Shown here: positions 11,817 to 46,369 of the stretch, piece after piece | Numbering within the stretch: the stretch's first letter is position 1 | How the letters are laid out: every line of letters starts with the position of its first letter | Source: Dehalococcoidia bacterium | Lineage (GTDB): Bacteria; Chloroflexota; Dehalococcoidia; Lucifugimonadales; UBA2985 | Direction of reading: 5' to 3' | Length of the DNA: 64,000 nt | Assembly: GCA_965219025.1 (NCBI GenBank) | Contig: OZ244716.1 | Location: 327,812 to 391,811 of the forward strand | Notes under the pieces: model-generated | What the model was told of the DNA's origin: nothing | The model's database searches: none | Seen by the model: only the letters and a program-made list of their open reading frames with translations | Made by a program: the position numbers and the translations under genes

Positions 11817-12169
11817 GGGGACGCGTGGTCTCGACAGGGGGTGGTTTCGCGGGATTGCAGGCCGGGGTGCCGTCCACCTCGTCAACAAGGCGGCAAAAAA
11901 GTAACTGGCGAAAATAAAGTAGCCCTGGCAGCCTAACACGGCTGCCACGTCCACCCTAACCTCTCCTCGAAGGTGAGGAGTGGGCGCCATAAGTCGAGGT
12001 GCAGCCCGCGCAACGCCGGTAGCGAGGGCCCAAGACCACCGGCTGGCTCCCAAAGAATCCCTGCCGGCAGGGGACCTTGAGAGCGAGAACCAATTACCGG
12101 ACAAGCCTGTAGCACATTCCAGCGGGAAGCTCTCTGGACGGGGAGTTCGACTCTCCCCCGTCTCCACCA
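11817..12169 (+). ncRNA. ssrA: tmRNA (SsrA)
   Basis: 5' GGGGACG pairs with 3' CGUCUCC-ACCA, including a G3:U70 wobble (the Ala identity element). T-arm GGAGUUCGACUCUCC is present. Internal tag ORF GGC GAA AAT AAA GTA GCC CTG GCA GCC TAA (11907..11936) encodes GENKVALAA. Confidence 0.95.
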
Positions 12170-12370: not shown

Positions 12371-13129
12371 TTGAGCCAGCGAGCAGTGAACGGCCGGCGC
12401 AACTCAGCCATCAGCGCCCTTGCACTGGGCGCAGTGCTCCTGTTCGCTGTGAGTTCAGCGTGCAGTTCCGAGCCGGATCCCACTGCGACCCAACCGGCAA
12501 TGGCCACCTCCGCGCCTTCGGCGACCCCCGCTCCGACGCCAACCGCGCCCCAGGCCGCTGAGCCAACGGAAGCGAGCATGGCTCATGCCGAGACGCCTAC
12601 CGTCGCCTCCGCCACGACCGCCGCTCCCACCGCGACCGCTGTGCCTTCGGCGACGGCCAATGAGGAGCCCGCCGATGCCCCGCCCGTCGGGACCAACGTC
12701 GGCAACACCCTGCCGCACTTCGAAATGACGCTTGCAGACGGATCGAGGGTGTCAACGGATGTGCTAGCGGCTCAGGGACAGCCCGTCTTTCTCTACTTCT
12801 TCGCAACGTGGTGACCGGTATGTCGCGCCGAGTTGCGGCGCCTGAAGCAGGACTACCCCGAATACGCAGATAGCGTTGAACTATACGCCATCGGACAGGA
12901 CGTGACTGAGGGCGTCGGCAGGCTGGAGGACTACCGGGCCAGCGAAGATCTCCCCTTCCCGGTTGCCGAAGTCAGCAACAACGTTCTGCGAAGCCTGGAG
13001 ATAATCAGGCAGTCCACCAAGGTCGCCGTCGATCACAACGGAGTCATCACCTATCGCGCCGGCATCGGCGAAGGCGAGGGTGACTGGCCCAAGGTGTTCT
13101 CCGAGCTGGCGAGCGGCGCCGGGGGCTAG
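12371..13129 (+). CDS. TlpA/ResA-like thiol:disulfide oxidoreductase lipoprotein with in-frame TGA (candidate selenocysteine, U-P-V-C)
   Basis: Track ORFs 12371..12814 and 12833..13129 share one frame. Joined, they read ...QPVFLYFFATW-[TGA 12812..12814]-PVCRAELRRLKQ..., a redoxin WCxxC motif with TGA at Cys1. Lipobox signal LFAVSSAC. AGGAGG lies upstream of the TTG start. Confidence 0.7.
12464..12690 (+). repeat. low-complexity Thr/Pro/Ala-rich linker coding region
   Basis: Encodes PTATQPAMATSAPSATPAPTPTAPQAAEPTE...TTAAPTATAVPSATA between the lipobox and the redoxin domain. Confidence 0.8.
12812..12841 (+). promoter_or_regulatory. UGA plus downstream hairpin (bacterial SECIS candidate)
   Basis: UGA, 10 nt, then GCGCCG-AGUUG-CGGCGC (12825..12841): a 6-bp GC stem and a 5-nt loop with G at loop position 2. 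Confidence 0.5.
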
Positions 13130-42740: not shown

Positions 42741-42963
42741 GCAATGACCTCCCCGTGAGGCCTGCGCCGACTGCGCCCGGCTCTCGCGGGCCATTCTAGC
42801 GGCCAACGGAGTGATGGGCAAGAAGGCGCTCGGGCGTAGCGTGTGGGGCTTGCGTCCGCCTCCCAGTCTTCCGCTCATGGTGAGCTTGTCGAACCATTTG
42901 AGCGGAAAGAGCCACATGCGCCGCTCAGGCAGACGCATCGGATTAGCGTGGTATACTTTAGGC

Positions 42964-43851
42964 ATGCGTACGCATGCCGTCCTGCTGATTGGCCTCGTTT
43001 GTTTGTGCCTCGCCGCCTGCGGCGCTGAGGACACGCCTCGCCCTCCGGCCAACACTCCCACGGACGCCCACGCCGAGCCGACACCCTCGCCCGCAGCCAC
43101 GGATACCCCTCAGCCCACAGCTACACCGGCTCCGACCTCCACACCCAGCCCGACGCCGACCCCCTCTCCGACTGACACCCCGCCGCCGACCGACTCTCCG
43201 ACACCCCGCCTTACCGCGACGCCGACGGCCGAGCCAACTGAGACCGCAGAACTCACGTCCACGCCTGCTCCGACCGCGACCTCCGTTCCCACTCCCACGC
43301 CGCAGCCCACGGCTACTCTTACGCCCACGCCAACCGCGACGTCCGAGCCCACGGCCACGCCTACGCCGGAGGCAACGCCCATGCCCGCTCGTACTATCGG
43401 CACGAATGTCGGCGACCAGGCGCCCAACTTCAGCCTTCCCGCCGCTTCCGGGCAGTCCCAGTCGCTTGTGTCGTACAGGGGCGACAAGCAGGTCGTAGTC
43501 GTGTTCTATAGGGCGTTCTGGTGACCGTACTGCAGAGGTCAGCTCGGCGAGCTGACAGGAGTGTACGGACGGATCCAGGAGCTGGACGCCGAGGTGCTTG
43601 CCATCAGCGTGGACAACCTCAGCGGAGCGGAGGACGTGGTGAATACCATTGGCATTCCCTTCCCGGTCTTGTACGACGTATCGAGACAGGTTCCCAGGAC
43701 CTATGGGGTCTACAACCTGCTTGGCGACAACCTGGCCGCGCCCGCCACCTTCATCGTTGACCGGGACGGTGAAATCGTGTGGAAGTACGTCGCCGGTTCC
43801 AAGGGAGACAGGCCGTCCGTGTCGATGATCCTGTCCAGGCTGGGCGGCTGA
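42964..43851 (+). CDS. AhpC/TSA (peroxiredoxin-like) redoxin lipoprotein with in-frame TGA (candidate selenocysteine, U-P-Y-C)
   Basis: Track ORFs 42811..43524 and 43561..43851 share one frame. Joined, they read ...KQVVVVFYRAFW-[TGA 43522..43524]-PYCRGQLGELTGVYGRIQELDAEVLAISVD... Signal MRTHAVLLIGLVCLCLAAC includes a lipobox. Confidence 0.7.
43021..43394 (+). repeat. low-complexity Thr/Pro-rich linker coding region
   Basis: Encodes about 125 aa of PTPSPAATDTPQPTATPAPTSTPSPTPTPSPTDTPPPTDSPTP... Confidence 0.8.
43522..43556 (+). promoter_or_regulatory. UGA plus downstream hairpin (bacterial SECIS candidate)
   Basis: UGA, 13 nt, then GUCAGCU-CGGCG-AGCUGAC (43538..43556): a 7-8 bp stem with G at loop position 2. 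Confidence 0.5.
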
Positions 43852-43857
43852 GGTGGT

Positions 43858-44535
43858 ATGTTGAAGCGCATCAGGCAATTGGGATTGATTTCAATCATTC
43901 TGGGAATAACTGTTGTTGGGCTGCTTTATGCTTTCGGGGCTAGAACAGTGCCTCACTCAGAGACCGGGAATCTGATTGGAGAAGGTGAAACCTATATTAT
44001 GAGCAGCCCGGGTCTATATCCAGACTTTAGCGTCGAAGAGGTGGCGCGCGTTTCATTGCTCACCGTAATGGGGAGAGTTGGTTCTGGTAGATTCTTGAAA
44101 AAGAACGCGGCCGGTGAGGAAGTGACAGGCACTCAGGATGTTCCAGTCCATCTGTGGTACTTTGCTCAATTCCATGTGGCAGAGTACCTGAAGGGTTCAG
44201 GGCCGGATCAGATAACGATTGCCCTTCCCGCAGGGCCGGATGGAAGCTCAGCAGTCGTAAGGGAAGACAGCCGGTTGGAGCAGGATGGCACGTACGTCCT
44301 GCAACTCTCCAACAAGGAAGGCTACGACGAGTGGTATCTGGGGCCGAACGTCTACAGGGTGTATGAGGGTTCGTATGGGAGGTGGAAGGTGGAGGGGGAC
44401 ACCCTGGTTTCCGACGATGGGAGAGATTTGGCAATGTCCCTCAGTGAAATGCGTGGCAAGGTAGATGCCTCTTGCAGTTCGCAAGTCCAGCCTCAGTTTG
44501 CCACCGCTATTTTGGCATATCAGCACTGCCCCTAG
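43858..44535 (+). CDS. hypothetical N-terminally membrane-anchored protein (low-GC ORF)
   Basis: 225 aa. MLKRIRQLGLISIILGITVVGLLYAF is a signal/anchor sequence. Composition is visibly more AT-rich than the neighbours. No family recognised. Confidence 0.5.
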   Translation: MLKRIRQLGLISIILGITVVGLLYAFGARTVPHSETGNLIGEGETYIMSSPGLYPDFSVEEVARVSLLTVMGRVGSGRFLKKNAAGEEVTGTQDVPVHLWYFAQFHVAEYLKGSGPDQITIALPAGPDGSSAVVREDSRLEQDGTYVLQLSNKEGYDEWYLGPNVYRVYEGSYGRWKVEGDTLVSDDGRDLAMSLSEMRGKVDASCSSQVQPQFATAILAYQHCP

Positions 44536-44776: not shown

Positions 44777-44849
44777 GCCCGAGTGGCGCAAGGGCAGCGC
44801 AACCGATTTGTAATCGGTAGGTTAGTGGGTTCGAATCCCCTCTCGGGCT
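44777..44849 (+). tRNA. tRNA-Thr (anticodon UGU)
   Basis: Acceptor GCCCGAG/CTCGGGC; D-arm GCGC-AAGGGCA-GCGC; anticodon arm ACCGA-TTTGTAA-TCGGT; GGTTCGAATCC T-loop. One irregular pair in the T-stem. No encoded CCA. Confidence 0.85.
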
Positions 44850-44932
44850 GTAACGGGACAAAGACGCGCGGAGGTGGGAACGGAAATAGGGGTCTTGGCC
44901 TGCCCCCACACGAATGATACACTAGCACCCGC

Positions 44933-45020
44933 GGAGGGGTGGGTGAGCGGCTAATACCACCAGACTGTAAATCTGGCGCCCGGAAGGGCTTCGTAGGTTC
45001 GAATCCTACCCCCTCCACCA
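44933..45020 (+). tRNA. tRNA-Tyr (anticodon GUA), type II with long variable arm, CCA encoded
   Basis: Acceptor GGAGGGG/CCCCTCC; anticodon arm CCAGA-CTGTAAA-TCTGG; variable arm GCCC-ggaa-GGGC; T-arm GTAGG-TTCGAAT-CCTAC. Confidence 0.95.
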
Positions 45021-45055
45021 GGCAGAGAGCAAGCAAGGACATCAAAAAGCGAAAA

Positions 45056-45130
45056 GCCCACATAGCTCAGAGGTAGAGCACGTTCTTGGTAAGAACGGGG
45101 TCACCGGTTCGACTCCGGTTGTGGGCTCCA
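45056..45130 (+). tRNA. tRNA-Thr (anticodon GGU), CCA encoded
   Basis: Acceptor GCCCACA/TGTGGGC; D-arm GCTC-AGAGGTA-GAGC; anticodon arm CGTTC-TTGGTAA-GAACG; T-arm ACCGG-TTCGACT-CCGGT. Confidence 0.95.
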
Positions 45131-45166
45131 CGCCAAACGGGCAAACGTAAGGAGGTAATCAAAGGA

Positions 45167-46369
45167 ATGGCTAAGAGGAGGTTTGAGCGAACCAAGCCCC
45201 ACCTTAACGTGGGGACAATAGGCCACGTGGACCACGGCAAGACCACGCTCACGTCGGCAATCACCATGGTTCTGAACAAGCAGGGCACCGGCGGCACCGC
45301 GTTTCGCAGCTTCGACTCCATCGACAACGCACCGGAGGAGAAGGCGCGCGGCGTGACCATCGCCATCCAGCACGTGGAGTACGAAACGCCCAACAGGCAC
45401 TACGCCCACGTGGACTGTCCCGGCCACGCAGACTACATCAAGAATATGATCACCGGCGCTGCACAGATGGATGGCGCCATCCTGGTGGTCAGCGCCCCGG
45501 ACGGCCCCATGCCGCAGACCCGTGAGCACATTCTCCTGGCTCGCCAGGTGCAGGTGCCCAGCATGGTCGTGGCGCTAAACAAGGTGGACGCCATGGACGA
45601 TCCGGAGCTCCTGGAGCTCGTGGAGCTTGAGCTTCGCGACCTCCTCAGCAGCTACGGCTTCCCCGGCGAAGACATACCTATCGTTCGCGTCAGCGCCCTC
45701 AAGGCCCTGGAGGACGAGGGAAACACCGACTCCGAATGGACCCAGGGCATAATCGACCTCATGCAGGCCGTGGACGACTACATCCCGGTCCCGCAGCGTC
45801 CCAAGGACCAGCCATTCCTGATGCCCGTCGAGGACGTGTTTGGCATCAAGGGCAGGGGCACCGTGGTAACCGGACGCGTGGAGCGCGGCATGGTCAAGAC
45901 CGGGGACGAGGTTGAGATCGTCGGCTTCGGTGAGCCTCGCAGGATCGTGGTCACCGGCGTGGAGATGTTCCACAAGACCCTGGACGAGGGCGAGCCGGGC
46001 GATGCCGTGGGCTGCCTTCTCCGCGGCGTGGAGCGCACGGACATCGAACGCGGTCAGGTGCTCGCCAAGGTGGGCTCCATGAAGGCCAGGACCGAGGCCA
46101 ACGCCGAGGTCTACGTGCTGGGCCGCGACGAGGGAGGCCGGCACACCCCCTTCTTCAACGGGTACAAGCCTCAGTTCTACATCCGAACCACCGACGTCAC
46201 CGGCGAGATTTACCTGCCCGAGGGCGTGGAAATGGTCATGCCCGGCGACAACGTGACCATGCAGATCAAGCTCATCAGCCCGGTTGCCCTTGAGGAGCAG
46301 CTCCGCTTTGCCATCCGGGAGGGCGGCCGCACCGTGGGTTCCGGCGTAATCACTGAGGTTAAGGACTAA
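45167..46369 (+). CDS. tuf: elongation factor Tu
   Basis: [28 protein letters not shown]...DCPGHADY...NKVD. AAGGAGG lies upstream. The track start at 45086 would overlap the tRNA. Confidence 0.98.

Follow-up and report, generated by a model that had tools for sequence, protein, structure and literature searches.

The window analysed here, a 64,000-nucleotide (nt) stretch of DNA from a Dehalococcoidia bacterium (assembly GCA_965219025.1, contig OZ244716.1, positions 327,812 to 391,811 of the forward strand), hosts a gene, 42964..43851, which is interrupted by an in-frame TGA and very probably encodes an exported redoxin, the TGA being decoded as selenocysteine (Sec). The region would be a single gene, neither two open reading frames (ORFs) nor a pseudogene. 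The continuity of the gene, the conservation of the TGA and of a hairpin located 3' to it, the covariation in the hairpin stem, the pairing of Sec and Cys forms, the identity of the domain and the alignment of the redox motif are direct observations, reported in the following sections; positions of features are collected in Table 1.

The first-pass annotation of this DNA had joined two ORF pieces into a product made up by a lipobox signal, a Thr/Pro linker and a redoxin domain broken by the TGA. All these elements lie at the coordinates that it had given, the linker measuring about 122 amino acids (aa). The lipoprotein signal, recognized by inspection (MRTH-AVLLIGLVCLC-LAAC), features a positive n-region, a hydrophobic h-region and a lipobox of the type [LVI][ASTVI][GAS]C. 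Cys19 (codon 43018-43020) is the predicted lipidated residue, and the same pattern points to export of the protein to the outer face of the membrane. The signals of the relatives are all equivalent, ending in ...AAC/VGC/VAC followed by G; a Pro/Thr linker is present in all of them as well, varying in length and sequence. With Sec written as Cys, the catalytic domain matches PF00578 (E=1.2e-32; 112.8 bits vs. a gathering cutoff of 26) and PF08534 (E=7.8e-24). The TGA at 43522-43524 resides in the context ...VVVVFYRAFW-[TGA]-PYCRGQLGEL.... The genuine terminator at 43849-43851 is again a TGA; as had been claimed, it has no such hairpin, the fold of the sequence 3' to it reaching only -8.2 kcal/mol (z = +0.99).

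Conservation of the in-frame TGA

The codon was monitored in 79 loci from species-representative genomes (43-95% identity), in three loci of a 97%-identical relative, and in the window, the sample including Dehalococcoidia, other Chloroflexota, Anaerolineae/Caldilineaceae, SAR202 and Spirochaetia. At the position matching 43522, 83/83 sequences (82 loci plus the window) have TGA, and none has TAA, TAG or a sense codon, while the true terminators of the same 83 genes are TGA in 38, TAG in 31 and TAA in 14. In the 82 loci the protein is conserved continuously on both sides of the TGA. Conservation of the codon in relatives had been named as a check on the proposed Sec decoding, and holds down to 43% identity; farther full-length homologs carry Cys, rarely Ser.

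In public annotation the gene and its relatives are present only as fragments of 85-260 aa, named at best 'redoxin domain-containing protein'. The best 120 protein database matches span just 52-69% of the domain, and correspond either to the piece following the TGA, or to a segment between two TGAs, ending in '...VVVFYRAFW' just before the next one. No start codon is conserved after the TGA, gene callers choosing Met residues at differing positions. TGA is the stop codon of 19/48 long ORFs of the window, so that the codon is not reassigned throughout the genome. When the window was scanned for coding-like in-frame TGAs, a redox motif was found only in the gene described here and in a second redoxin gene (see below).

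A SECIS-type hairpin within the coding region

The hairpin (43538-43556) begins 13 nt 3' of the TGA, its loop starting 21 nt after the UGA, and overlies the codons (G)-Q-L-G-E-L-(T). Its loop may be drawn with 3 nt (GGC) or with the 5 nt (CGGCG) of the first-pass annotation, which had placed the hairpin at the same position. The window hairpin alone folds at -11.3 kcal/mol. A lower stem (CCGUAC.UG / CA.GUACGG) raises the fold of the 60-nt window segment to -22.4 kcal/mol; it is paired in 45% of cells only, no better than slid controls, and was dropped from the element, the upper stem-loop alone being conserved across the family.

According to a model of the bacterial Sec insertion sequence (bSECIS; PMC13188914), these elements have an apical loop of 3-9 nt, an upper stem of 4-16 bp, a G in the first two loop positions, a distance of 16-37 nt from the UGA, and a minimum free energy <= -7.5 kcal/mol. 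The window element and 74/75 distinct sequences of the family conform to the model, and the hairpin is kept in register with compensatory changes, in agreement with the conservation that had been expected of it. The first loop nucleotide is invariably G, in spite of the fact that the encoded residue may be Gly, Val or Asp, and the loop begins with GG or GU in 64/74 hairpin-forming sequences.

Pairing was measured after aligning 75 distinct segments of 63 nt without gaps, the TGA occupying columns 7-9. The column of Cys190 is Cys in all 82 loci and in the window, alignment columns 16-17 being invariant and column 18 nearly so. Stem columns 23-30 / 34-41 are paired in 84.3% of cells, vs. 19-45% in six controls in which the stem was slid along the alignment. 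The covariation score is 0.243, vs. 0.097 in shuffled alignments, and 0/500 shuffles reach the observed score; RNAalifold on its own predicts pairing of columns 24-29 with 35-40. At pair 24:40 the combinations GC (23 sequences), UA (21), AU (6) and CG (4) are found; at pair 27:37 GC (53), AU (16) and GU (6), with zero mismatches; at pair 30:34 CG (50) and GC (5). At pair 28:36 CG turns to AU in three sequences through paired Leu-to-Ile and Glu-to-Asp changes (Q-I-V-D-L).

The GC-rich codons of the Q-L-x-E-L peptide are partly self-complementary, and the control provided by the hairpins of Cys forms (see below) is only partly clean; stem codons were therefore compared with codon usage outside the stem in the same 75 genes. 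Glu, Gln or Lys codons ending in A were never observed at +9, vs. 20.9 expected. CUC encodes the Leu at +7 in 53/75 sequences (71%, vs. a background of 23%), Leu at +10 is CUC in none of the 75, and the Gln codon CAA is found exclusively alongside the Leu codon UUG (16/16; Fisher 9e-12, phylogeny ignored). Synonymous sites are hence selected for pairing, compensatory and synonymous changes exceeding what codon bias accounts for.

Homologs with Cys, Ser and apparent Trp

A HMMER search with the part of the protein following the TGA retrieved 1,088 relatives. The closest are again truncated; full-length Cys forms begin at about 50% identity, and span the 35-50% range. Database entries and loci are hereafter denoted by P and L numbers, respectively. 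Cys resides at the Sec column in P0152 (FYRAWWCLYCRDQLIEL), P0146 (a lipoprotein, FYRAFWCTNC), P0147, P0166, P0207 and P0228, Ser in few full-length homologs. In each of the six Cys forms for which the DNA was fetched the codon is TGT or TGC. The hairpin in register is lost in L087, L089 and L090, and partial in L088. L086 452-898 (P0166) and L085 1501-1899 (P0152) are TGT Cys forms close to the Sec clade, and exhibit a SECIS-like stem; the L085 gene lies after a CMD (AhpD-like) gene. One entry, P0174 (L091 114-635), reads Trp at the Sec column. The corresponding DNA has TGA plus the usual hairpin, the gene caller having used code 4; Sec forms are thus able to hide as 'W' variants within protein databases.

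A second redoxin gene with an in-frame TGA

A distant paralog, encoding a signal peptide, an Ala/Pro/Thr-rich linker and a redoxin domain, is located elsewhere in the window (Table 1), directly 3' of the tmRNA gene (11817-12169). All the database relatives of this paralog are split at the point corresponding to its TGA at 12812. Members at 43% and 56% identity retain the TGA (ATW-U-PDC, ATW-U-PVC), and a hairpin at the same offset, with compensatory change (GCGCCG/CGGCGC vs. GCUCCGC/GCGGAGC). The two redoxin domains are just 31% identical, so they are old paralogs. The same signature in two genes unrelated by recent descent, within one 64-kb window, makes sequencing error or gene decay untenable; the argument against error that the first-pass annotation had drawn from the second gene holds, as the paralog family conserves its TGA independently. 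The paralog is a second candidate selenoprotein, and supports the hypothesis that Sec is decoded in this genome.

Type of enzyme

The best match in PDB is 3HDC, of the thioredoxin family (E=1.2e-17), whose WCPYC aligns residue by residue with W-U-P-Y-C; ResA and DsbE structures come next. In the alignment with the peroxiredoxin BCP (2cx3, E=3e-13), Sec falls on the Ser of S-P-V-C and Cys190 on the peroxidatic Cys, and the invariant Pro of A-A-P-A-T-F matches the catalytic Arg of peroxiredoxins (...kRAVFIV... of 2cx3). The peroxiredoxin signature PxxxT/SxxC is missing, F-Y-R-A-F-W-U-P-Y-C having Arg where the Pro is expected and Sec in the Thr/Ser column. Similarly, where peroxiredoxins have the Arg of R-x-x-F-I-I-D, the Pro of A-A-P-A-T-F-I-V-D is found, a thioredoxin-type cis-Pro. 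Since Sec comes first in a thioredoxin-type CxxC and the cis-Pro is retained, the protein is TlpA/ResA-like, and no true peroxiredoxin. Pfam confirms the AhpC/TSA fold of the first-pass annotation, which had placed the TGA at the peroxidatic or first CxxC Cys; in the alignments with 3HDC and BCP the latter assignment stands, the former fails.

An extracytoplasmic thiol:disulfide oxidoreductase of the TlpA/ResA type, acting as a disulfide reductase, is the function that we favour, with moderate confidence, over that of an envelope peroxidase. The protein is predicted to work like ResA, TlpA or CcmG, of which it is no equivalog. With these proteins and 3HDC it shares the thioredoxin fold, a W-C-x-x-C where helix 1 begins, the cis-Pro, membrane anchoring and, as far as the signal sequence predicts export, an outward-facing location. 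It differs from TlpA, ResA and CcmG because Sec replaces the nucleophilic Cys, because it scores far under the ResA cutoff, and because genes for cytochrome c maturation, Sco or CcdA are not conserved as neighbours. The top NCBIfam match is NF040769, 'SelL-related redox protein' (E=5.6e-18; 65.2 bits vs. a cutoff of 120), followed by ResA NF002854 (E=9e-17; 61.5 vs. 170), DsbE TIGR00385 (26.3 vs. 123) and TlpA NF047696 (25.7 vs. 230). True peroxiredoxins (BCP/PrxQ, AhpC) belong to the same superfamily and Pfam family and align significantly; they differ in the Pro, Thr and Arg residues, which are absent here. In peroxiredoxin selenoproteins Sec replaces the peroxidatic Cys (TxxU), whereas here it lies three residues earlier, at the Thr/Ser column.

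A U-x-x-C at the thioredoxin CxxC position is the hallmark of the Prx-like thiol:disulfide oxidoreductases, a known selenoprotein class which the gene joins. This family (PF00578, UxxC/UxxU, 1-2 Sec) has been 'predicted with high confidence' (PMC13188914); members have been reported in Geobacter, Syntrophus and Desulfotalea (PMC1794560), and 'Prx-like 1' (UxxC) ranks with the most abundant selenoprotein families in the ocean metagenomes of the Global Ocean Sampling survey (PMC2398784). PF00578, U-x-x-C, a bSECIS directly 3' of the codon and abundant Cys homologs are common to that family and to the proteins described here. Compared with the family by its description (reference WP_010940744.1), the latter are found in Chloroflexota, for the most part Dehalococcoidia, and some Spirochaetia, not in Deltaproteobacteria, are lipoproteins with a long Pro/Thr linker, are Sec forms in all members found within 43% identity, and in some relatives contain two or three Sec-bearing domains rather than 1-2 Sec. 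Less ordinary is the clade, which appears Sec-only (to 43% identity), is predicted to be exported and lipid-anchored, and is sometimes tandem. The functions of Prx-like selenoprotein families are predicted only. Selenoprotein L (SelL) carries a UxxU motif. With SelL, a Prx-like selenoprotein of aquatic eukaryotes (PMC2398784), and with NF040769 the domain shares a Prx-like fold whose redox motif occupies the CxxC position; unlike members of NF040769, it scores below the cutoff of that model (65 vs. 120 bits).

Alternative explanations

Several observations weigh against Sec decoding and the function proposed. The support is computational throughout. Neither selA, selB nor selD was found by tblastn with E. 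coli SelA/SelB/SelD in the 64-kb window or in about 650 kb of related loci, the SelB query matching EF-Tu only; ARAGORN found no tRNA-Sec (selC) in the window or in 60 loci scanned. A SelD-like ORF in L022 (28% identity) was rejected, as it reads as ThiL (EFGLI...GIGDDAA...TTD). At the gathering threshold, the Rfam matches are limited to tmRNA and tRNAs. Covariation counts ignore phylogeny, and the three CG-to-AU changes at 28:36 come from related lineages; moreover, the GC-biased codons of the conserved peptide Q-L-x-E-L supply part of the stem for free. Among Cys forms, L086 retains the full hairpin and L085 five register pairs. L086 is near the Sec forms, and the simplest reading is a recent Sec-to-Cys conversion with a relic hairpin; L085 looks like a similar recent conversion, with a partial relic. 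The domain remains under the cutoff of every specific NCBIfam model, and ORF clustering over 79 loci revealed no conserved neighbour gene pointing to a substrate or reductant. Sec machinery is assumed for this genome, and SelB dependence is presumed from the form of the hairpin. The use of Sec has been recorded in Chloroflexi, with three selenoprotein families (PMC1794560), and Sec-containing formate dehydrogenases have been predicted in single-cell genomes of marine Dehalococcoidia (PMC5736913); this is precedent, not proof for the genome under study.

If the TGA were a real stop, the locus would be a pseudogene, the result of a sequencing or assembly error, or two genes, one encoding a lipoprotein fragment and the other a C-terminal fragment, as automatic gene callers annotate it; the lack of sel genes in the window speaks for this reading as well. 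The hypothesis is extremely improbable, and effectively refuted by the conservation pattern: TGA in 83/83 independent assemblies to 43% identity, never replaced by TAA or TAG, within a protein conserved on either flank. The codon falls exactly on the column of the catalytic Cys, with a co-varying hairpin 3' to it, the downstream start codon is not conserved, and neither half alone makes a thioredoxin fold. Decoding of the UGA that bypasses the Sec machinery, through genome-wide reassignment to Trp or Gly (codes 4, 25) or near-cognate read-through (Trp, Cys, Arg), is also very improbable. Besides the unobserved sel genes, this would be in line with the Trp of P0174, had this residue not come from translation of a TGA by a gene caller set to code 4. 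TGA terminates 19/48 long ORFs in the window and 38/83 of the homologous genes, and just two in-frame TGAs with a redox motif are found in 64 kb, both at the column of the first Cys of CxxC. Trp, Gly or Arg in place of the catalytic nucleophile would inactivate the enzyme, and the conserved hairpin would be left without a role.

A different chemistry with the same recoding is rather unlikely, though less so than the former hypotheses. The protein would be a glutathione-peroxidase-like envelope peroxidase, in which the selenolate reduces H2O2 or organic hydroperoxides and Cys190 resolves the selenenic acid. Glutathione peroxidases carry their Sec at the N-terminus of the first thioredoxin-fold helix, an arrangement which favours this reading; AhpC/TSA is the best Pfam family, the peroxiredoxins BCP, Rv2238c and PrxU are among significant PDB/NCBIfam matches, and no neighbour gene of the cytochrome c maturation or CcdA/DsbD type, which would point to TlpA/ResA, is conserved. 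Yet neither the Pro nor the Thr of PxxxTxxC is present, the Arg is replaced by the cis-Pro, and the nearest structure and NCBIfam models are those of CxxC thiol-disulfide oxidoreductases (3HDC, ResA, SelL-related), features which argue against the peroxidase.

Proposed mechanism and significance

In the mechanism proposed for a Sec-decoded disulfide reductase, transcription would start at or near the ATG, and the ribosome would arrive at the UGA at 43522. The stem-loop 43538-43556 would offer its G-first loop, about 21 nt past the UGA, to SelB carrying Sec-tRNA(Sec), and Sec would be inserted, as the fit to the bSECIS model suggests. Sequence patterns further suggest that the preprotein may be exported by its type-II signal and lipidated at Cys19, the linker holding the domain off the membrane. 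Sec187 would be the exposed nucleophilic residue at the N-terminal position of CxxC, attacking an oxidant or the disulfide of a substrate; the intermediate would be resolved by Cys190 to an intramolecular selenenylsulfide, and a donor would then re-reduce the enzyme. In a TlpA/ResA-type enzyme Sec would serve as a more reactive nucleophile than Cys. We infer both the direction of the redox reaction and the substrate.

Standard annotation misses the recoding, and thereby underestimates the selenoproteomes and the selenium dependence of uncultured Dehalococcoidia. The 75 distinct sequences are a natural data set for the rules of bacterial SECIS elements, the stem lying within a conserved peptide and being kept via synonymous and paired changes. 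Tandem relatives (see below) could be used to study multiple SelB-dependent insertions per exported protein. The addition to general biology is modest, as computational surveys brought UxxC Prx-like/Trx-like selenoproteins to light some two decades ago.

Architecture of relatives

The window gene is a single-domain form. Among the 83 sequences, 75 contain a single Sec domain; two Sec domains are found in six sequences, and three in L020 and L030 (614 aa). In the tandem proteins (L020, L030, L016, L022, L024, L028, L034, L035) the redoxin domains are separated by Pro/Thr linkers, each domain having its own in-frame TGA (U-x-x-C); the database entries P0002 and P0025 are inter-TGA segments of such proteins. 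The aligned Sec domain of most tandem loci fits the SECIS model; that of L016 fails, and L028 and L030 are not distinct rows of the alignment. If true, the insertion of several Sec residues into a single exported protein would be unusual for bacteria.

The 80 closest species-level loci include no Cys form, and the clade lies outside the NCBIfam selenoprotein models. We tentatively suggest, short of firm conviction, a distinct, uncurated selenoprotein subfamily, composed of apparently Sec-only, exported, lipid-anchored redoxins with an in-ORF SECIS over Q-L-x-E-L, and with tandem expansion in some genomes.

Further variation was observed in metagenome-assembled genomes of Caldilineaceae/Anaerolineae (L073, L075, L080), in which a signal anchor and an N-terminal region of about 250 aa precede a Cys-type W-C-P-x-C domain and a Sec domain, the motif of the latter being FYRGxT-U-G-x-C. 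The compensatory AUC/GAU (Ile/Asp) variant of the SECIS stem is found in L075 and L080, not in L073.

Expression and neighbourhood

Table 1. Position of the features discussed in the text, all in window coordinates
Feature	Position	Strand	Basis or remark
Extended -10-like box TGGTATACT	42949..42957	+	read from sequence; 6 nt 5' of start codon
ORF pieces	42811..43524 and 43561..43851	+	same frame, TGA 43522-43524 between them; ORF list
Whole gene	42964..43851	+	ATG 42964; 295 codons
Predicted lipoprotein signal peptide MRTHAVLLIGLVCLCLAAC, with start codon	42964..43020	+	lipobox L-A-A-C; pattern match
Pro/Thr-rich linker, ~122 aa, from lipid anchor to catalytic domain	43021..43386	+	translation
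AhpC/TSA-redoxin (thioredoxin-fold) catalytic domain, 154 aa, containing the Sec codon	43387..43848	+	
In-frame TGA, very probably Sec187, first position of the U-P-Y-C redox motif	43522..43524	+	
TGC, Cys190, second residue of U-x-x-C, presumed resolving Cys	43531..43533	+	
bSECIS-type stem-loop, 8-bp stem GUCAGCUC/GAGCUGAC, loop GGC	43538-43556	+	fold, covariation
CCC, Pro260, thioredoxin-fold cis-Pro position	43741..43743	+	invariant P119 of domain
Genuine terminator TGA	43849..43851	+	no SECIS-like structure 3'
Distant paralog: signal peptide, Ala/Pro/Thr-rich linker, redoxin domain	12371..13129	+	31% domain identity
Paralog TGA, in W-TGA-P-V-C	12812-12814	+	
Paralog hairpin GCGCCG-AGUUG-CGGCGC	12825-12841	+	

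The -10-like box was missed by a two-hexamer promoter scan; most of 20 relatives examined have a comparable box, ending 5-7 nt ahead of the start codon (e.g. TGGTAAACT, TATAGTAAC). No Shine-Dalgarno sequence is evident by eye ahead of the start codon in the window gene and the relatives examined. These genes may therefore be expressed from leaderless mRNAs, beginning at the ATG or close to it.

The upstream flank, in the window as in L001, is a divergent prpD/citrate-synthase cluster; downstream are a membrane-anchored ORF, three tRNAs and tuf. The tRNAs and tuf (EF-Tu) span 44777-46369 in the window, in the order tRNA-Thr(TGT), tRNA-Tyr(GTA), tRNA-Thr(GGT), tuf, and L001 continues with rpmG-nusG-rplKAJL. 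Conserved with the closest relatives, this synteny anchors the locus in the core genome, and not in a mobile element. ORF 'clusters' initially seen in 32 and 17 loci were discounted, being antisense ORFs of the redoxin gene itself.

The downstream ORF (43858-44535, + strand, 225 aa) has an N-terminal membrane anchor and no Pfam match, and shares the reading frame of the redoxin gene, from which only TGA-GGT-GGT separates it. Its GC content at third codon positions (GC3) is 0.58, vs. about 0.8 in its neighbours; it is present in L001, L005 and L008, absent in L004, L006 and L007, and is probably a separately acquired gene. Read-through of the TGA at 43849 into this ORF was considered and rejected, given the absence of a hairpin, the start codon and anchor of its own, the atypical GC3, and its absence in L004, L006 and L007.

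In L010, ARAGORN reports an 87-nt tRNA-Gly (anticodon ACC; 2580-2666, + strand) about 1.3 kb 5' of the redoxin domain, probably a false positive because it is located where the repetitive region encoding the Pro/Thr linker is expected. Among the record titles of L004-L082, which include Spirochaetia, SAR202, Caldilineaceae and many UUID-named ENA MAGs, some (e.g. RHO1_bin_9, Langseth_MAG_00127) hint at sponge- or other host-associated metagenomes, and, judging from titles only, the clade may be enriched there.

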